A program made the position numbers and the translations under genes. 19,395 bases of DNA, from the IMG/VR virus record IMGVR_UViG_2541047813_000002. One strand, given 5' to 3'. The notes below the pieces were generated by a model that did no database searches, was not told the origin of the DNA, and saw only the letters and a list, made by a program, of their open reading frames with translations. Shown piece after piece: positions 340 to 17,040 of the stretch. This DNA is from a virus. Lineage: Duplodnaviria; Heunggongvirae; Uroviricota; Caudoviricetes. Each line of letters starts with the position of its first letter. Positions within the stretch are counted from its first letter, which is position 1.

Positions 340-575
340 TTGGGGGTATCTCCACTAAACTGAACAGCAAATCCCCTCAATTGCTTGTAGAGTTTGGGGT
401 ACTTAAATAGACGTCAAAAGACTAAAAGGGGCATTAATATACTGATTATAAGAGGTTTTTAAATACTTGAGTAGACGGGGATAATAGGAACAAAACAAAC
501 AACAAAAACACATTGATATATAATTATATTTTTTCATTACATCTTATAAGATACCCCCAAAAGTACCCCCAAACA
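339..575. promoter_or_regulatory. Integrase-proximal inverted-repeat cluster around an AT-rich core; putative int promoter and att/arm-type site region at the junction between two tandem islands
   Basis: TTGGGGGTATCT at 340-351 (+) and its reverse complement at 550-561; TTTGGGGTACT at 393-403 (+) and AGTACCCCCAAA at 562-573; the pairs flank an AT-rich segment (about 404-549) immediately upstream of the int start. Confidence 0.3.
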
Positions 576-885
576 ATTTTCTCTCACCACCATTTGCACA
601 TAAAGCAGCCATGTGCAACTGGTAACTGAACAGACGGGTAGACCATTCGTTCAGTAAATACCTGATATTTCCGCCAACGAAAAATTGCGTTGGCTGGCAG
701 AGTGCAAATTTGCACGATGACCTAACCCATTGATTTTTTCGAAAACCTGCAATGCAGGAGATCTGTGAAATAATCCTAACCCATTGGTTTTCCCACAATC
801 CTCAATTTGAGGAATGTACCTAAAACCATTTTTATAGCTCCGATCCCTTCAAAGTGAGGGGTAATTTGCCAAAACAGAGAGAGCA

Positions 886-1173
886 TTACTGTCTCTGGCA
901 ATCTTTATCGCGATAACGCCTGAAGTACCCTCTCGCTTCCTCATCCATACCAAGAGCCGAATGAGTCCGCTTAACTGCCTGTCTTAAATCTCCGAATCTG
1001 TCTGTAGTTGCTGGTGGGCGTGCCGCCTTACGGATACATTCAGAGCGTCTGTTTGCTGCATGTTCACGTTCTTTATCGCCATCTGCCAGCATCATGACTT
1101 CTGCCCATCGTGCGGCAGCTCTCCGGTATAGCCCTTTTGACTCCAGCTCTTCAGCTTTCCTGTCCTTTATCAT
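886..1173 (-). CDS. PerC-family-like small transcriptional regulator (95 aa)
   Basis: ATG at 1173 with GAGAGG 5 nt upstream. Sequence MIKDRKAEELESKGLYRRAAARWAEVM... matches my recollection of the PerC/Pch family N-terminal signature (AEELExKGLxRRAAxRW); not verified by search. Confidence 0.55.
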   Translation of the reverse strand: MIKDRKAEELESKGLYRRAAARWAEVMMLADGDKEREHAANRRSECIRKAARPPATTDRFGDLRQAVKRTHSALGMDEEARGYFRRYRDKDCQRQ

Positions 1174-1209
1174 TTCTGCCTCTCAGATTATATAGATAAG
1201 CAAAAAGGT

Positions 1210-1330
1210 GTTGGTTCAGTTGGTTCAGTTGGTTCAATTTGTAAAGAGCGTTGTTTTTATTGTGTTTTTTCTAAAATATTGAACCAACATCAACTCATTT
1301 TGAACCAACACAGCCCAGCTCTGAACCAAC
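1210..1330. repeat. Iteron module A: three contiguous GTTGGTTCA 9-mers (1210-1236), 43-bp AT-rich spacer, three TGAACCAAC 9-mers at 21-bp spacing (1280, 1301, 1322)
   Basis: Read directly from sequence. Reverse complement of module B at 9393-9504. Confidence 0.75.
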
Positions 1331-1432
1331 AACACAGCGATAGATTTGTGATTGGTCCGTTATTTTCTGACTGATATTTGAGCGTATAACAGTGTTATAC
1401 AGTGGTATACTGTATGGATATTACTCACTGAT

Positions 1433-1873
1433 ATGGTCTTTGCAATGAGCAAATCTAATCTGATCGCGTTCCGCATCCCATCTGAATTGCAGGATGAGTT
1501 TAATCGGTCTGTTCTCGCTTCTGGAGGGGATAAAACCTCCTGGCTTGTTGATGCGATTCGCATGAAGCTGGGACAGCCGGAAAAGTCTATTGATTCACGA
1601 ATGCTTGGGCTGGTGGAGCGCATGGAAAAAGCCGCAGCATCGCTTATTGCCGGAAAGCCGAACATCCCACCAAAGCCATATAACGAAACGGCAGTTATAA
1701 AGATCATTGCCGATACCATCCGACAGGGATTTGATAATGGGCGTGTGATAGCTGAACGGCTCAATGAAGCAGGCTACCAAACAAAAGCTGGTAAAGCGTG
1801 GGATAAAGACATTTACAGCGCGTGGAAGCGTCAGGGTAACAATATTAAAAGAATCAATACGCTGCTTCAGTAA
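1433..1873 (+). CDS. Putative DNA-binding protein (146 aa) with RHH-like N-terminus and recombinase-type HTH-like C-terminal segment; start could be M5 at 1445
   Basis: ORF adjacent to iteron module A and to palindromes at about 1384-1415 (TATAACAGTGTTATA, ATACAGTGGTATACTGTAT). N-terminus KSNLIAFRIPSELQDEFNRSV and C-terminus IAERLNEAGYQTKAGKAWDKDIYSAWKR. Function is inferred. Confidence 0.55.
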   Translation: MVFAMSKSNLIAFRIPSELQDEFNRSVLASGGDKTSWLVDAIRMKLGQPEKSIDSRMLGLVERMEKAAASLIAGKPNIPPKPYNETAVIKIIADTIRQGFDNGRVIAERLNEAGYQTKAGKAWDKDIYSAWKRQGNNIKRINTLLQ

Positions 1874-1902
1874 TTGATCAGTGTATAAATGATATTTATC
1901 GC

Positions 1903-2925
1903 TCAATCGCTCCCTTTCCGCCCTTCAGCTACAGGGTCGTTGTCGGCGATAACAAAACCTAAGTCCTGAGAGAATCTCTCTCGTGGGAATCCTTTAGCAG
2001 GTAAACCCATTGAATCATATCCACATCCGGGAACATTTGGTTTAGAGTCAATAAGGTCTGCAATTTGCCGAAGCCATGTTGATCCCGGACCAAGTCGTTT
2101 AACTAAGTACCAGATAATACAGATCGCGCTAAAAATCCTCTCGCAACTCTCTGGATGGAGATTAAGTCCGTCAAAGTATTCATTATCCGGTACTGGAACT
2201 CGGGGATGCTTTCTATTCCATATTCTGGAATGGTGAGCGCAACGATTCCTTATGAGATTAAGGCACTTCAACCATTTTGCAAATGTCTGCTTATTATCAA
2301 TGCCAAAACGACGTATAATTTTCCCCTGCATATGACCATTAAGCATCGCATAATATTTAGACATCTGACCAAAATCCCATGTCTCCACCGCCACCCAAAA
2401 TGGAATCTCCTTGCCTTGGCTTCGATGCCATTCAATACAGTCATCTCTGCTTTCGTCTAATTTTACTTTTTGCTTATACACCCAATGCTCGAAGGCAGAT
2501 GAGAATTTTGGATTAATGTATTTTGATGACATGTAGGCAAGTGGATCATTGCGACCAACCTCATGCGCGATGACTGAACGAACATGAATCTCTATTCTTT
2601 CGATAGCATCAATCATCAAAAGACGCAGTTTTTTGTCAAAAAGATATAGATCGTACGTCTTCTCGAAACTGGTACCAGCAAGAAATCGGTCTGTTCTGTA
2701 CGAAAGACCTTTATCTGTTGTCGCAATAATTCTTGAAGGGTACCAAAAACCTGACAATCGATAATATCCAACCTGCGACAGCTTACGTATCGCACGATTT
2801 CGATCATTGATAATCATGCCACGTTCAAGTAGCAATCCTAGCAATTCGTGATAGTCCTTATGAGGCTTTGCGGCAATCATAGTGGCGAAACAAAAGATAA
2901 TAAAAGGCCCGACCGTGAAACTCAC
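1903..2925 (-). CDS. Abi_2 family (AbiD/AbiF-like) abortive-infection protein; true start possibly ATG at 2880
   Basis: KPHKDYHELLGLLLERGMIINDRNRAIRKLSQVGYYRLSGFWYP matches the conserved Abi_2 N-terminal signature (...YYRLSxYWYP). Lower-GC than the replication module. No convincing RBS at either candidate start. Confidence 0.8.
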   Translation of the reverse strand: MSFTVGPFIIFCFATMIAAKPHKDYHELLGLLLERGMIINDRNRAIRKLSQVGYYRLSGFWYPSRIIATTDKGLSYRTDRFLAGTSFEKTYDLYLFDKKLRLLMIDAIERIEIHVRSVIAHEVGRNDPLAYMSSKYINPKFSSAFEHWVYKQKVKLDESRDDCIEWHRSQGKEIPFWVAVETWDFGQMSKYYAMLNGHMQGKIIRRFGIDNKQTFAKWLKCLNLIRNRCAHHSRIWNRKHPRVPVPDNEYFDGLNLHPESCERIFSAICIIWYLVKRLGPGSTWLRQIADLIDSKPNVPGCGYDSMGLPAKGFPRERFSQDLGFVIADNDPVAEGRKGSD

Positions 2926-3682
2926 ATGCCTGAAATCGGCGGCGGAGAAACAGAGGATCGGGCTCGGTTGCCTGTAACTCTATCCGAAGTTATCCACATG
3001 TCAATGCACAGTTACTTAGGAAACTAACATAGATACTATCATCACTCACGAAAAACCACTATATGTGGTTTTTATTCATATCGTTATCCACTACAGGCTG
3101 TGTCAATAACTTTTACCTATTAATTGGGTAATTTCTACATTTTCCTATGCTGGCTAGTTTCTCTACTGAAAAGTTGGCACTCCTTAATCGCTTTTCGGTT
3201 AATACTATCGGTCTTCATATTGCCAGCAGCATACGCCATCCGATAATTTCTATGCTACGCGCGCGTACTTGTCGCAAAATATCAGGCAAAGGCCAGATTC
3301 AGAACGTCGTGATAACCACCAGCACAACATGAGATGTCATGTAACACGATTTATCACATCAGATACATGTGATTGGTGTACCCGCATAAAACATCGTCAT
3401 AGCGCGTCCTGTGCACATATACGCCGATAATCAACACATCACCACCACTCTGTCTCGTGTAGAGAACAGTTTCATGGTATCCCCCGCCATCGTGTGCGTA
3501 CTGGTCGGACGTAGTTGCAAAATTTTTGCAACTGATACCCCTCGCGCGCGTACTGGTCACGAAATTGGTGTTTTGCTGTGGCAGTGATATCAGAAAAATC
3601 TTCCTGTTTCACATAAAGCGGATATGCGCGTACTGTAACAGCCCCATCAACTGGGAGCGGATTTGAAATCCCGACCCAAGCT

Positions 3683-4102
3683 ATGTACCAAATGCCATGT
3701 CTTGGATATATGATGATTGCCATTCTAAACAAAGCTAAAGGGAGGGTTGGTGTGAATGCTCAGGCTGTCATCATGGTTTTCCTTGGTCTGATTGTCGCAA
3801 AACTATATCCAGACTGGTGGAAAGGGGCATTAGCAACTGTCGCCATCTATTTGCTTTTATCCGTCGTTAAGCGATCGTTCGTTAAGACCGTAAATCAAGC
3901 AAAACGTTTCTCATTTAAGAATTTAATAAACTATATTACTGGGCTTATTTTTTGCCTTTCACTTTTGATCGCTTCAGCTTTTTTGCCCGTATCAATAGCT
4001 AATTTTTTTGGCGCACCATATGAGGTAGGTTATCTATTCTCTGTTTTTTGTCTTGTTCTTTCCCTTCTTTACCTATGGATGAGAGCAAAGAACAAAAATT
4101 AG
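3683..4102 (+). CDS. Small polytopic membrane protein (about 116-139 aa); probable start GTG at 3752
   Basis: AAGGGAGGG sits 5 nt upstream of GTG 3752. Three to four hydrophobic helices (VIMVFLGLIVAKLY, ATVAIYLLLSVV, ITGLIFCLSLLIASAFL, LFSVFCLVLSLLYLW). AT-rich. Convergent with the 701-aa gene. Confidence 0.55.
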   Translation: MYQMPCLGYMMIAILNKAKGRVGVNAQAVIMVFLGLIVAKLYPDWWKGALATVAIYLLLSVVKRSFVKTVNQAKRFSFKNLINYITGLIFCLSLLIASAFLPVSIANFFGAPYEVGYLFSVFCLVLSLLYLWMRAKNKN

Positions 4103-4120
4103 CCATCCATGGCTAACCAG

Positions 4121-6226
4121 TTATTGAGCTTCTTTTTGTGATGCCTGTGCGACTCTGGTGAGCGATTGTGTGACCGTACTGATCGCTCTGTCATATGCTG
4201 TGCTACCTTTTGGCGTATTTGCCAGACGTAACAAGGCATTTCGTATAACAGGGCTTTCGTATGCCTTCGCTGCTCCGCCTACGGCACCAGCAGCAGGAAC
4301 AACAAACGCAGCCGTTTTTAGCATCCCCGCTAATACTGCTGCGTTTATGATGCCACCACCAACTAACAATCCATAAAGCTGCTGACCATTTAAGTTTTGA
4401 ACGTTCGCTTTTGCCGCGTGTCTTGTATCGTTGAGGTATTTAATAACGCCGTCCAGTTCCTTTCCATGTACGCCTTTAAAGAAAGTTGCTGATTGCTTCC
4501 TGTTCCGGTGTAACGCATTAATAAACTTCTCAACACTGATATTTCCAGACGGATCAGTCGCCTTATCTACAGCATTCTGAACTATGGCTGCTCGTGCGTT
4601 TTGCCTACCATTGTCATCCAGAAGCCTGTAAAGCTGAGAACGTTCTGATGGGCTTTGGCTAAAAACGAGTTTTGTTACATCCTCAGGCGTGGCCTTGCCG
4701 CTGGCTATTGCCTTTTGAACGCGCGTTCTTCCCATCATGTCATTGAATTTAGACCATGAACGATCAACCCTTGCCATATTAATGGCTTCGTCTGCTCCAA
4801 GATTTTTGGCTACGGCTTTTTTCATATCCGCCGTATATGCCTTGTAGATAATATCGCTGGCTTTCTGGAGCGTATCTTTATCAACAGTGTCAGATGACGC
4901 CATAAATCGCTTTCGAAGATCGGTTCTGTTTTCCCTCGCCAGACGCAGGTCATTTGGTCCGCTGGTGATATCGTCTTTAAATTGCTGCAAGACTTTTACC
5001 GCGGCTCTATCCTGAGATTTGCCCGGGCGGCTTAACACGGCAATCTGATTGTCGATAGCTTTTACCGTGTTTGAGAGATCGACAGGGGTATCCCCCATAG
5101 CGTCAATTATGCGGTTATATCGCTTTCCTGCTGCCTCAATGAATTTTTGTTGCCCTTTAGTCGCAGATTCATAAAGCTGTTTATCAGAAATGCCACCCAG
5201 ACCATCGCTAAATGTTCTGACTAAATTTTCTCGTGCTTGTTGTTGATTCAGCCGATTCTTACCGGTTCCAAAAAAAGGAACTCTTTCGCCTAATGTCTGA
5301 GCCTGACTCTGCATAAAGGTTTTATCTTTCAGCATGTCACTGGTCATTAACGGCAGATTTCTTTCCGATGCAAAGTCGACAGCAGCCTTTGCTTCAGGCG
5401 ACATATCACCACGAACAGCCCTCGAAACCGCACTCGCTGTATTTTCCAGCCCCTTACCAATACCACCAATGCCAGCAGAAATTACCGTTTGTAACGGTTC
5501 AATATCTTCTCCACCAGCAAGGCTAGTGGCTCCCTGTAGTGCTAAATCTGTAGCTGCTGATTTTCCTATGGCACCAAGCACCGTTCCAGCCCTGCCAGCT
5601 GGTGTAAACGCCAACGCATTAGCAAGAAACGAAGTCAGGTCTTGCGGTGATAAACCCGGCTTGTTCAGGGCATAATCACCTGATGGCAGAGAAACGATAG
5701 TATTCCCCTTCTCATCCTGCCTTAATGTCGCCCCCATTCCCTGAAGAATCTTTTCCTGAGACGCGTCAGAGCCGAAAAGTTGAGACCATCCAGCCTTTAG
5801 GGCATCCATGCTTAGTGAGTTCAATTCTGGGGCAGAGGCGACATTTTGCAGTCTCTCCATCTCTGGAGTCATTCGGCTTTCGCCTGTTATAGCATCGCGC
5901 ATCGCAGCCCCAAGACTGGCTCCCTGTTCTGCTGAACGCTCAAGCCCCTCTCTTTGCTGAGTAGCTAACTTTGCATACCCTGACGCAAGAGAATTATCAG
6001 ATGATGTATGTTGAATATTTTGAGTTGCTGATTGGGATCGGTCTATTTCATTCGTTGATGGTAGTGGATAGGCAGCATAAAAAGCCTGCTTAGCCTGCTC
6101 TACACTTTCTCCGGCTTGCGGGGCAACGACTTCATTGAAGTATTGCTCCTGAGCCTGCGCTTTTTGTTCTGGTGCTAACGCCTGATACTGTGGAGAGGCG
6201 ATAACATCTTTCCATGCTTTAGCCAT
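4121..6226 (-). CDS. Large Q/A/G-rich protein (701 aa) with C-terminal glycine-zipper hydrophobic segment; phage ejection/DNA-transfer protein-like (P22 gp16-like by size and position)
   Basis: Long ORF; ATGA start/stop overlap with the upstream gene at 6226; C-terminal LLVGGGIINAAVLAGMLKTAAFVVPAAGAVGGAAKA. The family assignment is an inference, not a match. Confidence 0.85.
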   Translation of the reverse strand: MAKAWKDVIASPQYQALAPEQKAQAQEQYFNEVVAPQAGESVEQAKQAFYAAYPLPSTNEIDRSQSATQNIQHTSSDNSLASGYAKLATQQREGLERSAEQGASLGAAMRDAITGESRMTPEMERLQNVASAPELNSLSMDALKAGWSQLFGSDASQEKILQGMGATLRQDEKGNTIVSLPSGDYALNKPGLSPQDLTSFLANALAFTPAGRAGTVLGAIGKSAATDLALQGATSLAGGEDIEPLQTVISAGIGGIGKGLENTASAVSRAVRGDMSPEAKAAVDFASERNLPLMTSDMLKDKTFMQSQAQTLGERVPFFGTGKNRLNQQQARENLVRTFSDGLGGISDKQLYESATKGQQKFIEAAGKRYNRIIDAMGDTPVDLSNTVKAIDNQIAVLSRPGKSQDRAAVKVLQQFKDDITSGPNDLRLARENRTDLRKRFMASSDTVDKDTLQKASDIIYKAYTADMKKAVAKNLGADEAINMARVDRSWSKFNDMMGRTRVQKAIASGKATPEDVTKLVFSQSPSERSQLYRLLDDNGRQNARAAIVQNAVDKATDPSGNISVEKFINALHRNRKQSATFFKGVHGKELDGVIKYLNDTRHAAKANVQNLNGQQLYGLLVGGGIINAAVLAGMLKTAAFVVPAAGAVGGAAKAYESPVIRNALLRLANTPKGSTAYDRAISTVTQSLTRVAQASQKEAQ

Positions 6227-7359
6227 TAATCACCCCATAGTGAAGAAAAGTTACTGCTGGCTGCTGGCTGTGATACCTGCTCAGATTGCGGCAATGTCTG
6301 CGACGAAGAAGAAGTTCCTCTGTCAACTGCTGAAATAACCCGCAAAGCATCATAAGCTCGACCAGAAGCAGCTTTCAGCGAATTGAACTGGTTTTCCATC
6401 TTCCGGCGCTTGGTATCAATGGTTTTTGTGGAGTCGCCAGGCTGAGGGAAATACATTTGATAATATTTTGACATTTCAGCAGGTGCGATAGCTGCCCCTG
6501 TTTCCTGACGGAGTATTGCCATTATTGCGTCATTAGCATTAACAACGTATTGCTGCTCTGTTGGGCTGAGCGTTAAGTTAGCCAGCGTCCCATTACCCAA
6601 AGCATTATTAATGATCGCCACTCGCTGTGGGCTAAGCTGGTCTCTCAGTGTATCTATTGAATCAAGAGCATCCCTAACCCTGTATGCAAATCCAGCAGCT
6701 TTTTTAGCCCCTTCTGGCGACTTTTCCATGATCTTTTGGGCTGTTGGCAAAGCTATTGGACGAAACCCATCTCCAGATATTGGCTGGTTTAGTTTTCCCT
6801 GCTCTTCACTTCCGTCTGTGTAGTATTTTGTGACAGTGCCATCATCGTTTTCTCTAACACTCATTAATTTTTTGGCGTTTGTATTAATTCCAGCCGCTGC
6901 CGCAAATGCCGCCGCCCCCTCTGGATCCGCCTTTAACATTTGAGCGTACTGATTGTAATTCTGCATTGCTGCTGTTGGTGCATATGCTGACGTTAACGCA
7001 TTTGCTCGGCTAATATCCTGCCCTCTCGCCTGAAGTGCTTCGCCAGCCTGATTGCTGCGGATTGTTTCTGCCAACTTGCCACGCTCAATATCCCGACCTT
7101 CCATTTGATCTTTGATATCGAAATACTTCTCATGACCGAGAGAAAACAGTGCCATACTACCAGCAAGCCGCTGGAATCCCTGTGGATCATTAACATGCAT
7201 TTCGGCAACAGACTCAGGAGAAATTCCCAAGCGACGCATTTCATCTTCGTTATCTGCTATGAATTTTCCAAATGCCCCAGTTCCGAGCGAAGATGCGATT
7301 TGAGCACTAGTCGCAAGATGACCAATAGAATTTCTCTGGTCGTCATCAATAAAGCCCAT
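6226..7359 (-). CDS. C-terminal 377 codons of an apparently split ~470-aa gene (P22 gp20-like size)
   Basis: Reading frame stays open and protein-like upstream of the ATG back to a TGA at 7420-7422. No usable RBS before ATG 7359 (AAAGGG abuts the ATG). Confidence 0.75.
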   Translation of the reverse strand: MGFIDDDQRNSIGHLATSAQIASSLGTGAFGKFIADNEDEMRRLGISPESVAEMHVNDPQGFQRLAGSMALFSLGHEKYFDIKDQMEGRDIERGKLAETIRSNQAGEALQARGQDISRANALTSAYAPTAAMQNYNQYAQMLKADPEGAAAFAAAAGINTNAKKLMSVRENDDGTVTKYYTDGSEEQGKLNQPISGDGFRPIALPTAQKIMEKSPEGAKKAAGFAYRVRDALDSIDTLRDQLSPQRVAIINNALGNGTLANLTLSPTEQQYVVNANDAIMAILRQETGAAIAPAEMSKYYQMYFPQPGDSTKTIDTKRRKMENQFNSLKAASGRAYDALRVISAVDRGTSSSSQTLPQSEQVSQPAASSNFSSLWGD

Positions 7360-7634
7360 CCCTTTCTGAACGCTTTCAAATTCTTCTGGATACTCAGCAT
7401 TTTGTTTCTGTCTCCAGACTCAAAAGCCCCGGCATATGCTTTCTGAAACTCTGCTTTACGCTGTTGTTGACGTGCCTGCTGATTAATCTCAGCAACGCCT
7501 CTTAGCCCCTGTAGCGCCATTAAACCTACGTTTGGCTGCTGCTGATACTGCACAGGCTGAGGAACGGAAGAACGAGGAGCATTATCATTTTGCGGTGCCA
7601 TGCTAGGCAGCCCGCCAAGTTGCCATGTCGCCAT
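7257..7634 (-). CDS. N-terminal fragment of the same split gene; translationally coupled to the upstream 225-aa gene (TAATG); protein-like only for the first ~80 codons
   Basis: ATG 7634 overlaps the stop of the 225-aa gene. Sequence is Q-rich like its neighbours until about 7400, then becomes junk-like (ALLMTTREILLVILRLV) where the 377-codon frame takes over. Confidence 0.5.
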   Translation of the reverse strand: MATWQLGGLPSMAPQNDNAPRSSVPQPVQYQQQPNVGLMALQGLRGVAEINQQARQQQRKAEFQKAYAGAFESGDRNKMLSIQKNLKAFRKGWALLMTTREILLVILRLVLKSHLRSELGHLENS

Positions 7635-8311
7635 TAGAATCCAAGCCCCCCAACAAGACCAATAAGCCCACCACCAATAGCCCCGGCGACATTACCTATA
7701 CCCGGAACAACGGAACCAAGTTGCGCACCCGCTAAAGCGCCTGATGCCGCCCCACCAATACCACGCGCAAGACTGGATGGCTGCTGCGCCTGACCTGCAC
7801 GAATAGCGCCAAGCCCCTGCAAGAGTTGCCCGGTATTATTGGCGTAGTTTTGCCCTGCTGTTGCCTGCCCTGATGCCGCATTCATCCCGACATTTAGCAG
7901 GTTTCCATAATTTTGCATTTGCCCACTAAGCCAATTGTTATAAAGCATGGGCGCAATGGAAGATAACTGGTTACTGGTAGCTGTTGAGCCAAGCCCCCCG
8001 GTAGCTTCTGCTGAGACAAGGTTCTGATAACGGGCCTGATCTGCCTGTGTTTTATATAAACCAGAACCAAAGAAATCATTCGCGGCTTTATTCTGCCCTT
8101 CCAGAGTCATCAGTCCTTGTAGTTGTTGTAAAGCAGGCAATCCGACTTCTGCATACGGCTTGAGATTATTCATCACCGTATTCCACTGCTCGCGCTGCAA
8201 ATCAATTGCCTGCTGCTGGGCCTTCGCCTGAGCTTTAGAGGCACCACCATCACCGCCTTTTTCGTATACGGCACGATTGAGATGTTTATGAGCTATATGG
8301 GTAATTAACAT
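7634..8311 (-). CDS. Q/G-rich protein (225 aa) with C-terminal glycine-zipper; ejection-protein-like (P22 gp7-like size)
   Basis: ATG 8311 with AAGGAA upstream; overlaps the stop of the 153-aa gene. Contains EKGGDGGASKAQAKAQQQ and ends GIGNVAGAIGGGLIGLVGGLGF. Confidence 0.85.
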   Translation of the reverse strand: MLITHIAHKHLNRAVYEKGGDGGASKAQAKAQQQAIDLQREQWNTVMNNLKPYAEVGLPALQQLQGLMTLEGQNKAANDFFGSGLYKTQADQARYQNLVSAEATGGLGSTATSNQLSSIAPMLYNNWLSGQMQNYGNLLNVGMNAASGQATAGQNYANNTGQLLQGLGAIRAGQAQQPSSLARGIGGAASGALAGAQLGSVVPGIGNVAGAIGGGLIGLVGGLGF

Positions 8312-8766
8312 TCGCTGAATTCCTTATATTGTTGCCGAGTTAACTGATAAAGCGTTACGCCGACGGGTTTACCACATCTGATATAAGCATCATCAAGGTG
8401 ACCAACACGGGTAGCGCCAAGCAAACGGATAATTGCCCGTCCGTATTTGGTGGTGTCAGGAACCATGGTAATGCTGTTAAGGAATGGTGAGTTTTCGAGA
8501 AGCCATTTGCAGAATAATCGATGCCCTTGCAGTGCATATTCACCACGGAATCCGGGGTCGTACACCGCATGGCATTCAACAATGCTATGCCAGAAGTTAC
8601 GCACTTCATGAACGCCAGCCAGCACCAATCCTTCGTAGATACCGAGATATACCGCATCAGGCTTGATGTAGTACGTGTGCCCCGGCTCAACAATATTTTC
8701 GGTATTGCCAGGCTCGTTAAGAAAGGCCTGTAATCGCACAGGGTTATCAATAAATTTTAGTTCCAT
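8305..8766 (-). CDS. Hypothetical protein (153 aa), first large gene of the operon
   Basis: ATG start; ORF; stop overlaps the start of the next gene. Confidence 0.8.
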   Translation of the reverse strand: MELKFIDNPVRLQAFLNEPGNTENIVEPGHTYYIKPDAVYLGIYEGLVLAGVHEVRNFWHSIVECHAVYDPGFRGEYALQGHRLFCKWLLENSPFLNSITMVPDTTKYGRAIIRLLGATRVGHLDDAYIRCGKPVGVTLYQLTRQQYKEFSEC

Positions 8767-8782
8767 GCGATGCCATCCATTT

Positions 8783-8944
8783 TCACATACAGCCTGCCAG
8801 CGCCTTATCTATTAACCCTCGTGCAATTTCATGCAGAGTTGGCGCTACTCCAATTCCTGATTTTTTACGCTGCTCTTCCTGAATTTTCTTTATCGCTTCC
8901 ATTTGCTTCTCACTTATCAATACCGGCTTTACTGAAATAGCCAT
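8783..8944 (-). CDS. Small RHH-like (ribbon-helix-helix) protein, 53 aa, below the ORF-track size cutoff
   Basis: ATG 8944 preceded by AAGGGGG (4-nt spacer). MAISVKPVLISEKQMEAIKKIQEEQRKKSGIGVAPTLHEIARGLIDKALAGCM has a beta-strand-helix-helix pattern. Ends 16 nt before the 153-aa gene. Confidence 0.45.
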   Translation of the reverse strand: MAISVKPVLISEKQMEAIKKIQEEQRKKSGIGVAPTLHEIARGLIDKALAGCM

Positions 8945-9039
8945 AACGCCCCCTTAGAACTGTATAAAACAACAGTTATTATAGTTTCATAAATCGCAAT
9001 ATTCATCATCGTGATTGCAAAATATGAAACAAATAGCAC

Positions 9040-9071
9040 AAAAAAATGCCACCGCTCAGTAGCTGGTGGCA
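9040..9071 (-). terminator. Rho-independent terminator for the primase transcript
   Basis: On the minus strand: TGCCACC-11 nt-GGTGGCA hairpin followed by TTTTTTT (plus-strand A-run 9040-9046). Confidence 0.55.
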
Positions 9072-9265
9072 TCGTTCTGTGTGTCAGGTTTTGACAGGTT
9101 TTTTATGGACTCTAAAAACTATATTTATGGTGTCGCATTACTCTTCACGGAAGGCGCTTTCCAGTTCTGCCCTTGCTTCTGGCTCCATTGGTAATTTGAT
9201 TCGCGATCAGCTATGCGGATGGTTTGCTGAACAGGCATAACAACTTCTCAGGGGCTGTTTTCTGA

Positions 9266-9342
9266 ACTACGAAAATTTCGTAGTGCTCACTTTCAAAAAC
9301 GTCACGCCCTTGTACACAGGATTTTACGAAAGTCTCGTAAAA
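9266..9342. promoter_or_regulatory. Two palindromes sharing TACGAAA half-sites within the origin region
   Basis: ACTACGAAAATTTCGTAGT (9266-9284, perfect 9-bp arms) and TTTTACG-7nt-CGTAAAA (9322-9342). Confidence 0.35.
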
Positions 9343-9392
9343 CACTCTCTGATGCCAGCCAGGTGTTGTGCGCATCAATTCAGTCACATTGT

Positions 9393-9504
9393 GTTGGTTC
9401 AAAATACCGTGTTGTTGGTTCAGTGTTGGTTCAATAAAAAGAATAAAATCCTTATAAAACAACACTCTTTACAAATTGAACCAACTGAACCAACTGAACC
9501 AACG
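9393..9504. repeat. Iteron module B (putative ori): GTTGGTTCA at 9393, 9414, 9425; AT-rich spacer; three contiguous TGAACCAAC at 9478-9504
   Basis: Read directly; lies between the primase stop (9529) and the terminator; reverse complement of module A. Confidence 0.75.
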
Positions 9505-9528
9505 CCTTTTCTACGCACATGAAGAAGC

Positions 9529-12288
9529 TCATTCTTCAGATGAGTTGTAATCTCCTGGCTGGTAATTGAGTACATAAACGTTTATTTGTCGTCCCTGAAT
9601 ACGTGGTGATTTTCTTTGGTATCCACGACCGCTGTTTGGTGGGGTTAGCATCCCGGCTTTTTTCAACACTTCAGCAAACTGTTTTGCGTTGAAACCACAT
9701 GCGATCTCCTTTTCAAATGTGGCCGGGAATGTGTAGAAAATCATTGGGCTTTCGTCATGTTCTCCACGCTGACGGTATCCGGCTAAATCTTTGATGGGCA
9801 AATCTGCCGGGCTGTATGGAAATGGTGCAAAACGGCTAAGCCCATAGGCATTAAGAAATGCCTCCGTTTGTTCAATAATCTGCTGATGTTCTTTGTTACC
9901 TGTGCCGAACTCGCGCAACCATGCGTTATAGCTGTGCTGTATCGCATCACGGCATGTCTGAGCATCCCAGCCTGTTACAACCTCGCCTAACAGCAATGCG
10001 GCCTCCAGAATGGCAAATCGCGCGGCTACACGGTGAACCTGCTCACCATAATCGGATGGGATCAGACTTCTCCATCTGCTTTCGCAGTCACGAACAGTTT
10101 TAATTGCCTGTTGCTGGTGGTCTGCCAGCCATTTAATCCACTCACGCCCGGCTGCGCCGTGGTGATGCTGGTAAGCGTCTTTCAGTGCGTCTGCGTGCTG
10201 TTTTCCGTTCTGGTAATCGTGAAAGCGTACTGCTTTACTCAACGGAATATTCAGCAGTCGCACCAGTTGTCCGGCTTTGGTTTTTCGCCCGGAAGTAGCG
10301 ATAAATGTTTCTAAATCCATTTCTCCGGTGCTGATTGCCACTGTACGCCAGCGTTTTAGATCCCGGTTTCCACCATCTTTAGCGCCTTGCAGTTTCCCTA
10401 CACCGTTAAATAACGCATAGGCAGACTGTGAAACACTGACAGGATCAGCGCCCTGACCAACTTCATCAAGCGGCATTAGTCCGTCATTGTGGGCGGCGGC
10501 TTCATTTGCCAGCCCCAGCGCGGTTCCGTACCACGTCAGCCGCAGTAAATCAGGGTTGCCGTATAAGCTGCTCGCCACGTTTGCCGTGGTGGTCTTACCT
10601 GCGCTCGACTGCTCATAGAAATGAATGCCGAACCCGTCAGCGCCCACCAGCCCAATCAATGGCGCTGCCAGTGCTGCGCCGATCCCGGTCATCATTGAAT
10701 AGTTACCAAAGGCCAGACGCGCCACGTTATCACGCCAGCTTTTCGCGCTCCCTGAGACGGTATATCCGGCTGCGGCTGAGCTTCTCCCGCTGAACAGCAC
10801 AGGATTTTCAGGTGTTCCGATGATTTCCCCATCAGGCATGATGTACGCTCCGCATTGCCAGCCAGTGGCATGAGCAACACGCCACAATTCACGAGAGCCA
10901 CTGCGTTGTAGCCAGTCTGCCAGTATTGCTCTGAGGCTGCTTTTGGTCGTGACATTTACCCCACCAGCTTTAAGTGTGCGCCATCCTTCACGTTCACCAA
11001 TATCAGCCAGTGGAATGGCAGCGGTTGTCGGCGTTTCAGAACCAAACGACAGCCAGCGAAGAATGAGATACTGGTCTTTATCGTCTCTGCCAGTACCGAT
11101 AACGCTTAACGGCGAACATAACCAGCTTTCGTTATTGATGATTTCTCCACTCTGGCTGTCAGCTCTCGGAGATACCCAATAAATACCATCCTCTCGGCTT
11201 TCTATTCTTGGTTTCAGTGGGTCGGTATCCATAACCTTAAAATCGCTTCCCTCAATGGTCTGTGGCTCCTGTTTCACGCCATTACCCTGTGGTTGGTACA
11301 TTGACTTATTGAACGTTTCTGTGGCGCATTTAATGCCGTGTTTTTGGTGGTAATCATTCCAGTCTGCTTTGTGATCTGTCGGGGGTAATGCCACCCATCC
11401 AGAAACAGATAAAGCTGCTTTTTCTGCTGCTATTCTCCCCGTGTTTTGTCTTCCTTCGCTGTGGTCGTTATCCGCAGCAATGATGATTTGTGCTGAAGGA
11501 TATTTATCCCGCAGTACCTGGGCGACATATAACAGGTTCCCGGCATCAATCGCCGCCACTGTCAGCGCCTCTGGACGAATTAAATGGGCAGATAATGCCG
11601 TTGCCAGCCCTTCTGCGATTAAGATGCTCTGTGTTGTTTCTGGTGCGTTTATGGCGTGATATGCTCCCCGTTTTGCTGAACCTGTCAGGAGTCTTTTTTC
11701 ACCATGTGAGGTAATAGTCTGTGCTGCTGTGACTGCGCCGGATTTATCCACCAGCGCCAGCAACAGAGATCCATCGGGCAACACGGGGAATGTAAAATCA
11801 CCTACCCCTTTCGCAACCAGATAATCAGATTTACCGTTTACAGCCTTTCTGCGCATGTCATCAAACTGACGGGAAAACGTATCCCGTCTTTGTTGTTCGT
11901 CCTTCTCTGCCCTTTTCAGGCGCTCCTGTTCGCGTCGCTGGCGCTCGGTTTCCAGTTGTTCCCGTTTCTGGCTGGTGGCTTCTGGTGTTTCCGTTGTCCG
12001 GTAATCAATACCCAGAACATCAGCGGCAAGAAGCGCCGCCTCTGTTGTGTCGCAGTTATTTACGCGTTTAATTAAATCCAGCCCATCACCAGCGCCGCAC
12101 TGATTACAGATGAAGCTACCGCGCCCGTTGTCATCGAACCGGAATCGATCTTTGCCCCCACATGCAGGGCAGGGAGCATGACGGCGCGGAGAGTCAGGGA
12201 CATTTATGTTCAGGCAGCCCAGCACATGAGGCCAGTTGTTTTCAGACGCACTGATAACCTGACGGATAAGATCAATGTTTCGCATCAC
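9529..12288 (-). CDS. Primase with zinc-ribbon and Toprim domains plus a P-loop NTPase-like domain (P4 alpha-like); probable start ATG at 12285
   Basis: CPACGGKDRFRF...FICNQCG zinc ribbon; Toprim acidic motif IIIAADNDH; P-loop-like SSAGKTT; 919-aa ORF. Confidence 0.95.
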   Translation of the reverse strand: MMRNIDLIRQVISASENNWPHVLGCLNINVPDSPRRHAPCPACGGKDRFRFDDNGRGSFICNQCGAGDGLDLIKRVNNCDTTEAALLAADVLGIDYRTTETPEATSQKREQLETERQRREQERLKRAEKDEQQRRDTFSRQFDDMRRKAVNGKSDYLVAKGVGDFTFPVLPDGSLLLALVDKSGAVTAAQTITSHGEKRLLTGSAKRGAYHAINAPETTQSILIAEGLATALSAHLIRPEALTVAAIDAGNLLYVAQVLRDKYPSAQIIIAADNDHSEGRQNTGRIAAEKAALSVSGWVALPPTDHKADWNDYHQKHGIKCATETFNKSMYQPQGNGVKQEPQTIEGSDFKVMDTDPLKPRIESREDGIYWVSPRADSQSGEIINNESWLCSPLSVIGTGRDDKDQYLILRWLSFGSETPTTAAIPLADIGEREGWRTLKAGGVNVTTKSSLRAILADWLQRSGSRELWRVAHATGWQCGAYIMPDGEIIGTPENPVLFSGRSSAAAGYTVSGSAKSWRDNVARLAFGNYSMMTGIGAALAAPLIGLVGADGFGIHFYEQSSAGKTTTANVASSLYGNPDLLRLTWYGTALGLANEAAAHNDGLMPLDEVGQGADPVSVSQSAYALFNGVGKLQGAKDGGNRDLKRWRTVAISTGEMDLETFIATSGRKTKAGQLVRLLNIPLSKAVRFHDYQNGKQHADALKDAYQHHHGAAGREWIKWLADHQQQAIKTVRDCESRWRSLIPSDYGEQVHRVAARFAILEAALLLGEVVTGWDAQTCRDAIQHSYNAWLREFGTGNKEHQQIIEQTEAFLNAYGLSRFAPFPYSPADLPIKDLAGYRQRGEHDESPMIFYTFPATFEKEIACGFNAKQFAEVLKKAGMLTPPNSGRGYQRKSPRIQGRQINVYVLNYQPGDYNSSEE

Positions 12289-12643
12289 CGTACCCCACGT
12301 GGTCTATAGCGTTTGCGATATGGCTAACCAGCATCTGCCACTTGGTTATTCCGTAATCAGTCAGCATGCCATCATTGTTTAGCCACATATCAAATTCAGC
12401 GGTTGTCGCAAGTTTCCACTTATCGCCGTGGACAGTCCTCATTGCTGGGTACATGAATGCGCAAATCAGATCACAAACATCTGACGGCTTCAGAGATGTA
12501 GTAATGGTGCGTCCCTCTGGCGTCTGAATTGCCATTTTCTCTTCACCAGTAGAATGAAGGTTATGAATCCACACAGCGCCAGCAATCTTTGCCACCTGCT
12601 CTCCGATTGCGGAGCTAAGCGCCATTTCTGCATTTTCACGCAT
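12272..12643 (-). CDS. Hypothetical protein (123 aa); paralog of the upstream 113-aa gene
   Basis: GGGAGG sits 6 nt upstream of ATG 12643; start overlaps upstream stop (ATGCGTGA). Shares NDGMLTDYGITKWQML with KDGLTDVGREIWQSM in the neighbour. Confidence 0.75.
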   Translation of the reverse strand: MRENAEMALSSAIGEQVAKIAGAVWIHNLHSTGEEKMAIQTPEGRTITTSLKPSDVCDLICAFMYPAMRTVHGDKWKLATTAEFDMWLNNDGMLTDYGITKWQMLVSHIANAIDHVGYGDAKH

Positions 12644-12977
12644 GAGAACCTCCCGCTACAGTTGCGCCCATGTCATTAACCATGCTTTGCCATATCTCAC
12701 GCCCGACGTCAGTCAATCCGTCCTTAGTGACGCAACGATCAAGAAGCTCTATCCCCACGGTTTCCCACTGCGGGTAGAACACTTTCATGGCTGCCAGTGT
12801 GTAGCTATCGATCAGGCTGCGAACGCCTTTTACTCCATTGACGATTTCCACACGGACGGCCTCGCCGTCCGCATCAACCATGAAATAGTCCCCGCCGCTG
12901 GTGGAGGTAATGTGGTTATACAGTGCCGACGCATACTTATTTGCCAGCGCATTTAGTCGGAAATTTTTAGTAATCAT
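12636..12977 (-). CDS. Hypothetical protein (113 aa); paralog of the 123-aa gene
   Basis: ATG 12977; ORF; shared motif with the downstream gene. Confidence 0.75.
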   Translation of the reverse strand: MITKNFRLNALANKYASALYNHITSTSGGDYFMVDADGEAVRVEIVNGVKGVRSLIDSYTLAAMKVFYPQWETVGIELLDRCVTKDGLTDVGREIWQSMVNDMGATVAGGSHA

Positions 12978-12987
12978 GGCTCCATCC

Positions 12988-13590
12988 TCAGTGCGTCACT
13001 GGTTCCGCTGGCATGCCGTTTTCATTCAGTTCAGCTATAAAGCTGTTGTGAAGTTCAGCAAGCGTTTCACGACCAAATGGAGTCAGTGCTCCTTGTTCCA
13101 CATCCATCATGGCTCTGTAGAAAATGATGGCGCGTTCTGTGCCAGACTCGATGCCAAAACGTTCTATCATCGCGCCCTCAATGTTGTTTGCCATAGCGAG
13201 GCGCTCTGCTACTGGATACAGCGGCATGGCGACGATGCCGTTGGAATAAACAGCCACTTCGGAAGGATTGCCAGTATCATCAATGATGCTGACAGTGCCG
13301 TTTTCCTCTCTCATTTCCAGCATGAATACTGTTGCGATCAGCCATCTCCACATAATGACGTTATGCTGTGATGTGTAATCGAAATATCCCTGGTTGCCGC
13401 CATCGGCAATAGCGAGATGTATTGACATACCTTCATCTGGTTTATCGTCATAATCCCCGGCATCCAGACGATTTACGGCATCAATATATGAGACGGCCTC
13501 AACGCGTTCTGTCATGCCATCGTTGCTGCGGTACATGATGTTTACGCCGTCAGGCGTTGCTTCTGCATGGAAAGTTAAGAAATTATTCAT
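12988..13590 (-). CDS. Hypothetical protein (200 aa); start reassigned to ATG 13590
   Basis: GAGG RBS, and ATGAATAA overlap with the stop of the upstream 73-aa gene. The ORF-track extension to 13695 overlaps that gene out of frame. Confidence 0.7.
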   Translation of the reverse strand: MNNFLTFHAEATPDGVNIMYRSNDGMTERVEAVSYIDAVNRLDAGDYDDKPDEGMSIHLAIADGGNQGYFDYTSQHNVIMWRWLIATVFMLEMREENGTVSIIDDTGNPSEVAVYSNGIVAMPLYPVAERLAMANNIEGAMIERFGIESGTERAIIFYRAMMDVEQGALTPFGRETLAELHNSFIAELNENGMPAEPVTH

Positions 13591-13804
13591 GTTTCGCCTC
13601 GCCTGAATGATTCTGTAACTCATATTTGCCCAACAATTCGTCCGCTTCCTGAATAGCTTCTGGTACGCCATTGAGCAGTGACATAACCGCGCCAATCATT
13701 AACTTGTCTCTGTTGCTGGGGCTGGCCCCTTCAAGCCAGAACCCTAAAACAGTCTGAACCTGTTCGATGCGACATTGCGCTTCAATGAGCTGGATGTTGG
13801 TCAT
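13583..13804 (-). CDS. Hypothetical small protein (73 aa)
   Basis: ATGA overlap with upstream gene; part of the coupled operon. Confidence 0.65.
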   Translation of the reverse strand: MTNIQLIEAQCRIEQVQTVLGFWLEGASPSNRDKLMIGAVMSLLNGVPEAIQEADELLGKYELQNHSGEAKHE

Positions 13805-14064
13805 TTCGCACTCTCCACATCGATTAAACCGATATCTATCAGGGAGGTAACTTTTTGTAGCCAGCTATTGATTACTGTCGCCTGTTCCCCTCCCACCGAG
13901 GGAACAATCTCATTCATCACATGAACCAGACCTGTGCGCGCTCTGGTAAGCCGTTCAGTCGCGCAATCTGCGGGAGTGAATGTGTCTGGATATGGCTCTT
14001 CGCGCCCCAGCAATGATTCAATTTCCAGCTCACACGGATGACGATAAATTAAGTTGATATTCAT
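13801..14064 (-). CDS. Hypothetical small protein (87 aa)
   Basis: ATGA overlap with upstream gene; part of the coupled operon. Confidence 0.65.
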   Translation of the reverse strand: MNINLIYRHPCELEIESLLGREEPYPDTFTPADCATERLTRARTGLVHVMNEIVPSVGGEQATVINSWLQKVTSLIDIGLIDVESAK

Positions 14065-14255
14065 TTTTCACCCCCAAGAATTACCAGCTCTGCACGGGCA
14101 TCGTTAACCAAAGATGAGCACGCTTTAATCGCATCCACGACATCAGCAGCGTCCATTTCTTCAGCCGAAAGACTGACAGCAACCAGGACAGCCGCTGCTT
14201 GCTCGATTAATTGAAGTGCGGACGTAAGGCGAGGGGTATTAATTGAGTTATTCAT
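14061..14255 (-). CDS. Hypothetical small protein (64 aa; [10 protein letters not shown]...)
   Basis: ATG 14255 with GGGGG upstream; ATGAATAA overlap with the stop at 14248-14250. Confidence 0.6.
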   Translation of the reverse strand: MNNSINTPRLTSALQLIEQAAAVLVAVSLSAEEMDAADVVDAIKACSSLVNDARAELVILGGEK

Positions 14256-14466
14256 TGGTTGCCCCCGTTTTTCCTGGCATTTCGCCACCTTCCAGCAGGA
14301 AATGAACGTCGCGAACGGCGAGGTCCAATATCGCGAGTAACGCCTTCAGTCTTTCGTCTCGTGAGGGAGAGTTGCTCACCAGAATGTCGTTAATCACTTC
14401 TGTCAGTGTGATGATCTGGCTTGTGCGTTCGAGGGGGTCCATATGCACATCGTAGGTTTTAATCAT
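14248..14466 (-). CDS. Hypothetical small protein (72 aa; [17 protein letters not shown]...)
   Basis: GGAGGTGG sits 6 nt upstream of ATG 14466; ATGATTAA overlap with the stop of another frame. In-frame with the long ORF 14248-15315. Confidence 0.5.
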   Translation of the reverse strand: MIKTYDVHMDPLERTSQIITLTEVINDILVSNSPSRDERLKALLAILDLAVRDVHFLLEGGEMPGKTGATNE

Positions 14467-15315: not shown

Positions 15316-15491
15316 TTGTTAACCTCCGCGAACTCCTTCATGAAACGTGCCAGCGGTTGTACGCATGGCGATTGATACCCGTCGCGATAAAACGTCACTC
15401 GGTTGTGAGACACGCTTTCGACAGTAACGAGTGCTCCGTGGGCATCTTTGTAGCGTTTTTGTGGTTGTGGTGTTCCTGTTGGCTTAGACAT
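15309..15491 (-). CDS. Hypothetical small protein (60 aa; MSKPTGTPQPQKRYKDAHG...)
   Basis: GGAGGTGG sits 5 nt upstream of ATG 15491, which overlaps the stop of the Rha gene. The longer 89-codon ORF would overlap Rha by 95 nt. Confidence 0.55.
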   Translation of the reverse strand: MSKPTGTPQPQKRYKDAHGALVTVESVSHNRVTFYRDGYQSPCVQPLARFMKEFAEVNKC

Positions 15492-16317: not shown

Positions 16318-16329
16318 TTTCAGTCTCCG

Positions 16330-16958: not shown

Positions 16959-17040
16959 GTTTACTCCTATATTCTGTCATCTTCTTTAATGGACATCAGT
17001 AGACAGAAAGGAGATTAAACAAACCGGTGAATGGGTGATA

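Follow-up and report, generated by a model that had tools for sequence, protein, structure and literature searches.

What does a gene of the Abi_2 abortive-infection family do at the far end of a phage satellite in Escherichia coli, and is that gene the whole of the system? The question is raised by a 19,395-nucleotide (nt) stretch of DNA (IMG/VR record IMGVR_UViG_2541047813_000002; the window, which here always means the whole stretch), in which an initial annotation had placed an Abi_2 gene and two small regulators in a distal cargo region at positions 886-3682. The Abi_2/AbiD-F family, the published type of phage-inducible chromosomal island (PICI) to which this element belongs, and the carriage of variable defense cargo by satellites are all established. 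The analysis reported here adds an RNA component that is strongly supported by comparison, a detailed map of the hotspot in which the gene sits, and phage-borne orphan copies of the RNA. By comparison with characterized systems, positions ~1844-3190 probably constitute a self-contained AbiF-type defense cassette, that is, a type III toxin-antitoxin (TA) abortive-infection module, within a hotspot of an EcCIMP1-like PICI. The initial annotation missed the RNA partner of abi, which is key to how the family works.

The abiF-like gene (abi; 1903-2880, minus strand) encodes a HEPN protein of 325 amino acids (aa), a predicted RNase toxin, and by its sequence this protein is a clear member of the Abi_2/AbiD-F family. 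The match to Pfam PF07751 lies far above the cut-off (178.4 bits versus 25.6, E 2.3e-52, profile positions 2-184 of 184), and the same family is returned by PADLOC (AbiD, 194 bits, 8.4e-58) and by PHROG 2158 (“abortive infection resistance protein”, E 1.8e-56). The family named for an open reading frame (ORF) at 1903-2925 was thus upheld, while its start was not: a long frame from GTG 2925 is unlikely, as RefSeq starts the gene at ATG 2880 and 23 of 23 aligned homologs likewise begin with MIAAKPHK. Bases 2881-2925 are most likely leader RNA and its U-rich tail rather than coding sequence (CDS), and no obvious Shine-Dalgarno sequence precedes the gene. Residues 4-301 of the protein (298 residues) align with PDB 8VZ6_A (PbAbiF; E 4e-36), with about one third of residues identical in the aligned region; 8VZ6 is a Prevotellaceae AbiF solved in complex with its own non-coding RNA (ncRNA) (PMC12737573, PMC12373285). 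In this alignment, R211 and H216 of the string RNRCAH (HEPN R-phi-x3-H) coincide with R210 and H215 of PbAbiF, the R210A+H215A double variant of which was reported to be inactive (PMC12373285). Five of the six residues of RNRCAH are invariant in 24 proteobacterial homologs (50-74% identity), and C214 is kept in at least 90% of them. The window clade also shows no variation in R, S, A, and H of another Rx4H-like string, RSVIAH (101-106), but this string is given no weight, because PbAbiF reads RSAIVN there. The basis for an anti-phage role of abi is the database labels (PADLOC, PHROG) together with the defense-type hotspot in which the gene lies.

Immediately upstream of abi and on the same strand is a structured leader RNA (2891-2970, minus strand) which, from its conservation, its covariation, and its match to a covariance model (R1), is predicted to be a cis-encoded antitoxin and attenuator; a conserved structured ncRNA in this position is what the type III TA architecture calls for. 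The leader consists of helix P1 (GCCCGAUC/GGUCGGGC), which is G+C-rich and 8 bp long, around a conserved internal loop (CCUCUG / UCACG) and a variable P2 hairpin that is extended in the window clade. A U-rich tract follows P1 directly upstream of the abi start, and this tail (CCUUUUAUUAUCUUUUGUUU) stops 10 nt before the ATG. A sigma-70-like promoter (2977-3004, minus strand) with 10 of 12 consensus matches (TTGACA, a 16-nt spacer, TAGAGT) precedes the RNA, and the transcription start predicted from it, at ~2970, is the first base of the RNA motif. One further RNA candidate was rejected: a “lactis-plasmid RNA” match at 3008-3097 (minus strand; 18 bits, E 5.4, gathering score 70) is attributed to chance; it is located upstream of the promoter, in sequence not conserved in homologs.

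The leader was delimited by comparing 80 homolog loci, drawn from one-genome-per-species contigs, over the 400 nt upstream of each gene. A block of 60-85 nt, ending 10-20 nt before the start codon, has 82-100% nucleotide identity between loci whose proteins are 42-68% identical; the window leader itself is 85-87% identical to those of Raoultella and Aeromonadaceae loci versus 66-68% identity for the proteins. The TTGACA column lines up in most of 79 homologous leaders, and the alignment reads, in order, TTGACA, ~17 nt, a -10-like element, CAAY-NG-NGCCCNNN-CCNCUG, a variable hairpin, UYAYG-NNNGGGC-CUUCUU, and a U-rich stretch. The unpaired CCNCUG and UYAYG are invariant or near-invariant from Enterobacterales through Desulfobacterota. 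With 62 distinct sequences, RNAalifold recovers two helices of 16 pairs in all, 12 of which show compensatory double changes; pairing is kept in 94.6% of cells, compared to 79% in shuffled alignments and 27-47% when the partners are slid. The number of double-change cells was 188 versus 50 expected, and none of 500 shuffles equaled the observed alignment on any measure.

Within the window, R1 matches only 2891-2970 (minus strand; 49.4 bits, E 6e-13), and it finds no copy in nine related islands that lack Abi (L002-L010) and none in EcCIMP1. Twelve loci outside the model set were then scored, from E. coli, Klebsiella, Edwardsiella, Cronobacter, Serratia, Proteus, and Rahnella and in prophage, satellite, and chromosomal contexts. 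Exactly one copy stands before each of 13 of 13 Abi_2 genes, 12-24 nt upstream and on the same strand, and nothing beyond these Abi_2-linked copies was found in ~123 kb of DNA from these loci. One of them, from Proteus (L102), carries a tandem Abi_2 pair (1145-2241, 2901-3972) with one leader motif each, at 23.5 and 52.9 bits. Pasteurellaceae leaders (L080, L086, L090) keep CCCCUG, but their outer helix is different (GGCGUAG...CUACGUCC) and their insert is longer, which suggests a sub-family outside the coverage of R1. In three distant loci, a tRNA gene lies 300-500 bp upstream of Abi_2 on the same strand (L021 2607-2679, L025 2673-2746, L048 2500-2581), probably as a side-effect of integration-site context. 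Rfam 15 has no family at the leader in the window, in the segment 2800-3750, in 20 homolog loci, or in one Pseudomonas leader, and the window leader has no blastn match among 50,697 phage records. The leader (~66-80 nt) is thus an RNA family absent from Rfam, although it may already be described in the 2025 Cell paper on AbiF.

In AbiF, a type III TA system, the ncRNA encoded upstream has two roles: in cis it terminates transcription, and in trans it binds the toxin (PMC12373285, PMC12737573, PMC13064643). Like PbAbiF-AbiFr (8VZ6) and AbiF-RCd22 of Clostridioides difficile, the window locus combines full-length protein homology and the RNxxxH catalytic residues with an upstream, same-strand ncRNA, a shared promoter, a terminator-like hairpin before the start codon, and carriage on a mobile element. 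It differs from AbiF-RCd22 in having one motif copy per gene rather than two, and from PbAbiF in that its protein is gammaproteobacterial, about one third identical, and of a clade known from sequence alone. It differs from both systems in that no threshold tried gave a match between its RNA and the Rfam abiF motif. From its sequence, the locus appears to have the architecture of an AbiF-type type III TA system in all but this last respect.

The exchangeable cassette (1844-3190) comprises the abi CDS, the leader RNA, the promoter, and ~190 nt upstream, including an A/T-rich hairpin at 3050-3075, and it is bounded by homology breakpoints with islands L002-L010, L098, and L104. Ten related islands were fetched, located at thrW, next to yicG/dinD, and near ykgL. 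Their flanks match the window from 586, 597, or 1090 to 1310/1331 or to 1843, and again from 3188-3249 on, with 91-99% identity and with other genes between. In this inner slot stand an Abi allele 51% identical to that of the window, a capP-like ImmA/IrrE protein with a 125-aa protein, a pair of 318-aa and 145-aa proteins, a 66-aa protein, or helix-turn-helix (HTH)/AlpA-like proteins of 45-61 aa. The left junction, at 1843, falls inside the last ~10 codons of a convergent ORF (ORF146), the C-terminus of which varies with the cargo. Nested within the cassette is a smaller swap unit of CDS and leader only (1844-2950), which exchanges with the 51%-identical allele: in islands with that allele, the promoter and upstream DNA are 97% identical to the window down to 2951, after which the sequences diverge through the ORF. 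The leader and ORF are replaced together under a common promoter, so that RNA and protein form a single unit of exchange, which is what a cognate pair would be expected to do.

The frequency of these alleles was estimated in 5426 complete E. coli genomes. A query spanning 490-4120 has matches in 720 of them, with at least 80% coverage in only 57, and the backbone flank 3250-4100 is present in 604. This Abi cassette (at least 80% coverage) was found in 73 genomes, and a further 56 match 2959-3180 only; the one of these that was fetched (L104) carries the 51%-identical allele, as does a second E. coli island (L098) found via protein P0037. In total, ~129 of the 604 backbone-bearing genomes carry an Abi allele. 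Two further variable loci adjoin the inner slot. The outboard slot, from the attachment site (att) to perC (490-885), has no gene in the window; elsewhere, it holds PDC-M59 A+B with a Doc/Fic toxin (a candidate defense system), pRiA4b-ORF3 and small genes, or a 254-aa protein. In the window, this slot contains two 17-nt direct repeats (CCTAACCCATTGATTTT), 55 nt apart, and a 97-nt fragment (738-834) that is 77% identical to phage roi/antirepressor genes and is the best of the trivial fragments that were all the distal region matched among the 50,697 phage records. On the other side, a gene for a small multi-pass membrane protein (3683-4102, plus strand; RefSeq start 3713), downstream of a gp16-like gene, loses homology at 3755-3757 and regains it at 4101-4103, such that its first ~15-25 codons are kept and its body (3756-4100) is replaced by variants of 129, 146, or 204 aa (L098 2516-3130, L007 4906-5346). 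The 204-aa variant (L098) is weakly SieA-like (PHROG 7745, E 4e-4; PF26849 weak), and the window protein has no match in Pfam, PHROG, or PADLOC scans. PADLOC also returned nothing for the 318-aa, 145-aa, and 125-aa proteins, the DUF6387 protein near the integrase gene, or the membrane proteins.

The slot is a variable accessory/defense hotspot at the end of a phage satellite that is distal to int, and the distal end of EcCIMP1-type PICI is a multi-slot hotspot made up of the outboard slot, the inner slot, and the membrane-protein body. Some of the alternative cargo matches defense or candidate-defense models, namely the ImmA/IrrE protein and, in the outboard slot, PDC-M59. As proposed initially, the G+C content is low, at 0.425 over 490-4120 and 0.412 in the cassette versus 0.477 over 4121-18180. 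The core of the initial annotation stands, because Abi_2 is profile-supported and the slot cargo varies between islands. What it had called cargo has to be narrowed to the abi cassette, since perC and ORF146 appear from sequence comparison to be backbone or semi-backbone genes.

The island itself can be delimited and classified. The window is 99.8% identical to E. coli strain YP3, where it is flanked by yagU/vat/MarR on one side and by tRNA-Thr-proA on the other. The tyrosine integrase gene int (18181-19395, minus strand) adjoins tRNA-Thr just past the right end of the window, and the 3′ end of that tRNA gene (L001 27597-27606) recurs at 480-489 as a 10-nt copy of the att core, GATAATAGGA, which forms the int-distal boundary. 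The bases to the left of this copy (~480) repeat, with 74-89% identity, the 5′ end of int and the spacer between int and the tRNA gene, with homology to the spacer stopping just short of the att copy, and positions 1-339 encode a truncated Arm-type integrase (Pfam Arm-DNA-bind_3). Given this repeat and the att copy, bases 1-479 are interpreted as the stump of an older vat island and ~490 to the tRNA as the island under study, which is inserted in tandem beside that integrase stump. The abi gene is ~1.4 kb from the att copy and 15 kb from int, and it was thus rightly placed at the end farthest from int. The island encodes Int, DUF6387, AlpA (PF05930, E 9e-20), an antirepressor, Ash, a TOPRIM/DUF927 primase (annotated in RefSeq) with iterons at 9393-9503 that abut its stop codon, DUF2824, and P22-type ejection proteins. 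This is the layout of a PICI, with the integrase next to att, an AlpA-family regulator, and a primase with adjacent iterons.

The closest described relative is EcCIMP1 of E. coli MP1, a PICI by its authors’ classification that is excised and transferred by the P22-like phage Kapi1 (ISME J 2025, PMC11773190); helper-dependent excision, replication, and transfer have been demonstrated solely for the MP1 element with Kapi1 (PMC11773190). The two islands occupy the same tRNA-Thr (thrW) site between proA and yagU with the same vat/MarR island alongside, and they are 98% identical over 7474-16949 and 18205-19395, which take in int and the alpA-ant-ash-primase-DUF2824 core; a PerC-family gene and the distal non-coding segment are likewise found in both. 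The distal third differs. EcCIMP1 has no Abi and only a 52-aa HTH gene in its inner slot, holds pRiA4b-ORF3 and two small genes in the outboard slot where the window has none, carries other alleles of the terminal ejection-protein genes, and is without DUF6387 between int and alpA. Based on the 98% core identity and the common locus, the sequence identifies the element as an EcCIMP1-type PICI, and the comparison to P4 as mere analogy.

Copies of the leader were also found in phages, lytic ones among them, in part without a toxin gene. A degenerate motif pattern, in which part of P1 and the tail were forced, retrieved 79 IMG/VR contigs, and because about as many matches were expected by chance, all 79 were rescored with R1; 55 loci scored 36.8-79 bits. 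An Abi_2 gene lies 19-49 nt downstream in 23 of the 55, one of which is the window’s own cassette (100% protein identity) on a contig that IMG/VR classes as viral. Some 30 loci have no Abi homolog in up to 14 kb (orphans; L113, L115, L116, L119-L121, L126, L128, L131, L135, L146-L149, L154, L168, L169, L175, L177, L179, and L183 in IMG/VR), though the pattern-biased retrieval means that the ratio of linked to orphan loci is not a prevalence estimate. Against a model built from Abi-linked copies only, the orphans score 37-73 bits, often above the window copy. They lie in intergenic gaps, co-oriented with late genes: in the gap between internal virion protein D and tail fiber genes of T7-like phages, next to the large terminase gene, upstream of portal, scaffold, or major head genes, or downstream of a major head gene. 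In Pseudomonas phage Ghuch01 (PP179330.1; Autographiviridae, Ghunavirus), a 66-nt element at 35883-35948 (L184 2000-2065; 63 bits) occupies the 93-nt gap between gp16 and gp17. MR1 and Ghual01, which like Ghuch01 are T7-like Pseudomonas phages, also have a copy, while the close Ghunavirus relatives phiPst2111 and WRT have gp16-gp17 gaps of 62-63 nt and no copy. Pseudomonas is also the genus richest in leader-bearing Abi_2 loci in the 80-locus sample. In an alignment of orphans only, 94.5% of cells are paired, with 96 double-change cells versus 32 expected, statistics that lean towards structure because the alignment was fitted to the model; in P2, which the retrieval pattern left unconstrained, 92.9% of cells are paired and six of eight pairs show compensatory changes.

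Taken together with the two characterized homologous systems, these observations suggest how the cassette may work. The promoter (3004-2977, minus strand) would drive a transcript starting at ~2970 with a structured RNA of ~80 nt, and the nascent RNA would fold into P1 and P2. Most transcripts would stop at the leader, as may be expected because the outer helix is G+C-rich and followed by a U-rich tail, and occasional read-through would reach abi (2880-1903). An abundant small RNA would thereby be made in excess over a rarely made Abi that, lacking a Shine-Dalgarno sequence, would be poorly translated. Through its conserved unpaired nucleotides, the leader RNA would bind the HEPN dimer, mask the active site, and hold the RNase inactive. 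Phage infection may then lower the ratio of RNA to protein or displace the RNA, via host transcription shut-off, RNA decay, or a phage factor, and the freed RNase would cleave cellular and phage RNA, such that growth is arrested before phage maturation. The family, the catalytic residues, the existence, position, promoter, and covariation of the RNA, its 1:1 linkage to Abi_2, the co-replacement of RNA and ORF, and the behavior of the hotspot are directly supported. Leader termination, RNA-protein binding, RNase toxicity, the trigger, and the anti-phage phenotype would follow by homology.

Several observations weigh against the interpretation of the locus as an AbiF-type defense cassette. The whole of the mechanism at this locus draws on comparison rather than experiment, and expression of abi could be negligible given that no Shine-Dalgarno sequence is apparent. 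Folded singly, the window leader is no more stable than shuffled sequence (z -1.3), nor is the fold of the 223-nt upstream region significant (z -1.05); the support for the structure of the leader therefore comes from comparison with other sequences. The abiF motif RF03085, the hallmark of the characterized Firmicutes systems, has no match in the window at E<=1 or E<=10, none in the 20 homolog loci at gathering score, and none in the Pseudomonas leader at E<=10, which means that equivalence to the characterized AbiF RNAs would rest on position, linkage, and analogy. EcCIMP1 gives superinfection immunity without any Abi (PMC11773190), so the island does not need abi. The same anatomy would also suit an addiction role, in which the cassette stabilizes the island. 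Mobile elements can be stabilized by type III TA systems, maintenance of a prophage was raised for the C. difficile system (PMC12373285), and neighboring slots of related islands hold TA-like pairs such as the Doc/Fic toxin of PDC-M59. That the cassette is mainly such a post-segregational killing module, serving to keep the island or its distal end rather than to defend against phage, is nevertheless judged unlikely: an Abi allele is found in only about a fifth of backbone-bearing genomes (the ~129 of 604 above), a functional, published EcCIMP1 without Abi indicates that Abi is dispensable for maintenance, and the family was discovered through, and is cataloged for, anti-phage phenotypes (PADLOC, PMC13064643). 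The two roles can coexist and are not mutually exclusive. It is more improbable still that the leader is a cis-acting attenuator or terminator only, which would silence a toxic or costly gene without serving as a trans-acting antitoxin. A G+C-rich P1 and a U-rich tract right before the start codon are what such a device would look like, and in C. difficile premature termination at the leader alone suffices to prevent toxicity (PMC12373285). Termination leaves unexplained, however, the conserved unpaired CCNCUG and UYAYG, the replacement of leader and ORF together under a retained promoter, and the toxin-less phage copies with the same loop nucleotides, and the RNA binds the protein in both characterized AbiF systems (PMC12373285, PMC12737573).

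The parallel with P4 that was drawn initially deserves the same scrutiny. A degenerate or atypical P4-like satellite with a P4-type defense hotspot could account for int, the AlpA-family regulator, the Ash-family protein, and the large TOPRIM/DUF927 primase, and variable defense cargo in P4-like satellites and P2-like phages is reportedly the subject of work by Rousset et al. in 2022. As in those hotspots and in PICI immune systems, conserved flanks enclose fast-exchanged anti-phage cargo that varies between near-identical elements; the window differs in satellite family, in helper type, and in having at least three adjacent variable loci and a junction placed within a conserved ORF, at its 3′ end. 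Kinship with P4 is nonetheless very improbable. As was noted initially, psu, sid, and delta appear to be missing: RefSeq names none of their products in the island, and neither Psu nor Ogr_Delta has a Pfam match in the 10 ORFs scanned (the unnamed small core ORFs and the ash, AlpA, and DUF6387 genes), the absence of Sid, for which there is no sensitive profile, being less certain. P22-type ejection-protein homologs and DUF2824 stand where a P4-like satellite would need capsid-size genes, and the core is that of the Kapi1-mobilized EcCIMP1. Of the P4-like hotspot layout, then, the hotspot is retained and the kinship is not. As for the toxin-less copies in phages, their simplest reading, by analogy, is antitoxin mimicry, and it is tentatively proposed as a possibility that the leader is an uncataloged RNA family of proteobacterial AbiF of which lytic and temperate phages express captured copies in late operons to disarm AbiF. 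There is precedent in the pseudo-ToxI of phage phiTE, an RNA mimic directed against ToxIN (PMC3594212), and in the sk1 cos hairpin, which inhibits lactococcal AbiF (Rince 2000, as described in PMC13064643). The orphans would act like these phage-borne elements that neutralize a type III TA toxin, but they match the antitoxin’s own covariance model and are single copies in late-operon gaps, whereas the sk1 hairpin and the AbiF ncRNA are described as dissimilar (PMC13064643). Alternatively, the orphans may be ordinary terminators or processing hairpins that resemble the leader by chance or through the constraints on terminators, and would then be silent on its function. Their position in late-operon gaps in the orientation of the flanking genes is where terminators are expected, and they end in U-rich tracts, for which, as for part of P1, the retrieval pattern selected. 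This seems doubtful, and it is weakened by the retention of the unpaired CCNCUG and UYAYG, by the scores against the Abi-linked model, by the pairing of P2, on which the pattern placed no constraint, and by presence that is polymorphic among close relatives of Ghuch01, as expected of an accessory element. If mimicry is correct, it would be a natural RNA anti-defense against the ancestor of Cas13, and the co-swapping of leader and ORF would reflect toxin-RNA specificity evolving under pressure from phage mimics.

Around the cassette lie backbone features that are kept whatever the cargo. The PerC-like regulator of the initial annotation is borne out as a PerC-family backbone gene (886-1173, minus strand; PF06069, E 3.1e-33; PHROG 994), whose product is 53% identical to EcCIMP1_025, the MP1 protein that represses LEE1 in C. 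rodentium. PerC-family genes and Abi_2 co-occur in more than one kind of element, as seen in three E. coli loci (L092-L094) where a 67%-identical Abi_2 allele with the same leader motif lies on a different element. That element, located next to type I-E CRISPR cas genes, carries SSB, ProQ, and as many as three PerC-family genes in tandem, and an antiterminator Q gene comes after it. Between perC and ORF146 is an iteron array (1210-1330) of three direct and three inverted exact copies of GTTGGTTCA around an A+T-rich spacer, of which the array beside the primase gene (9393-9503), with the same copies and spacer, is a near-mirror. The window contains 12 exact copies of GTTGGTTCA in these two clusters and 17 with one mismatch allowed, versus 4.5 expected, and none of 200 shuffles reached 17. 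The distal array (1090-1331) is kept in every related island examined, and both arrays are present in EcCIMP1. The array abutting the primase stop codon is likely the origin of replication, and the distal one could be a second origin or a site at which the replication initiator regulates nearby genes. ORF146 (1433-1873, plus strand) encodes a conserved protein of ~143 aa, with homologs that start at 1445, are 65-79% identical across Enterobacterales, lack a Pfam domain, and occur in islands with other cargo. The label of ribbon-helix-helix or HTH protein initially given to it found no support: Pfam has no family at threshold (the best, HTH_62, has E 0.04), PDB sequences yielded nothing in an HMM profile search, and Foldseek against the PDB with an AlphaFold2 model (mean confidence, pLDDT, 70.9) gave nothing below E 1. 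Residues 3-45 match PHROG 30270 weakly (E 7e-4), and one database homolog is named “Arc-like DNA binding domain protein”; the model has a helix-helix N-terminus of low confidence and a confident C-terminal domain that has no PDB neighbor. On the other side of the cassette, a non-coding backbone segment (3190-3682) keeps 94-99% identity across all related islands, EcCIMP1 among them, no matter which cargo they carry. It contains five GCGCGTACTG-like decamers (3261, 3402, 3494, 3546, and 3626), a 23-nt repeat in three copies, the palindrome AGTTGCAAAA/TTTTGCAACT (3513-3533), and a 10-nt perfect palindrome; searches found no Rfam family, no annotated gene or conserved ORF, and no similarity beyond E. 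coli islands.

Elsewhere in the island, Rfam identifies a C4 antisense RNA (14707-14794, minus strand; 81 bits) and isrK (14857-14934, minus strand; 69 bits), inside or overlapping a long “ash family” ORF (14248-15315) upstream of the antirepressor gene; in MP1, this region is annotated as an Icd-like gene and a truncated ash gene. These matches suggest a P1/P7-type C4/ant immunity switch in a PICI. Between alpA and int, a low-GC segment (16950-18204; 0.37-0.41) with the DUF6387 gene (17156-18037, minus strand; 293 aa) is interpreted as a further cargo slot next to int, because this gene is absent from EcCIMP1; the int-alpA RNA motif (RF02996) is found at 18053-18120 (46.7 bits versus a gathering score of 35.8). 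Over 4121-7473, the genes for a gp16-like (701 aa) and a gp20-like ejection protein cannot be aligned with their EcCIMP1 counterparts, as MP1 has a 906-aa lytic-transglycosylase-domain protein and a different ejection protein at that position, while related islands carry the window’s alleles at 98-99% identity. The injection module with which the satellite mimics its helper is thus itself mosaic.

Recent work has established that AbiF pairs a toxin with an RNA and that Cas13 evolved from it. The AbiF systems characterized so far come only from Prevotellaceae and Clostridioides, and the cataloged RNA motif does not cover Proteobacteria. The locus described here is a family member from E. coli in which the promoter, RNA, and ORF are clearly delimited, and it comes with a natural allele series, in which two Abi alleles stand under one promoter, on a type of satellite whose prototype is already genetically tractable. 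R1 provides a means to annotate the RNA partner across Gammaproteobacteria, Betaproteobacteria, and Desulfobacterota, without which “single-gene” Abi_2 annotations omit half of the system. Since the same model also finds the toxin-less copies in phages, it makes RNA-based evasion of AbiF directly testable.

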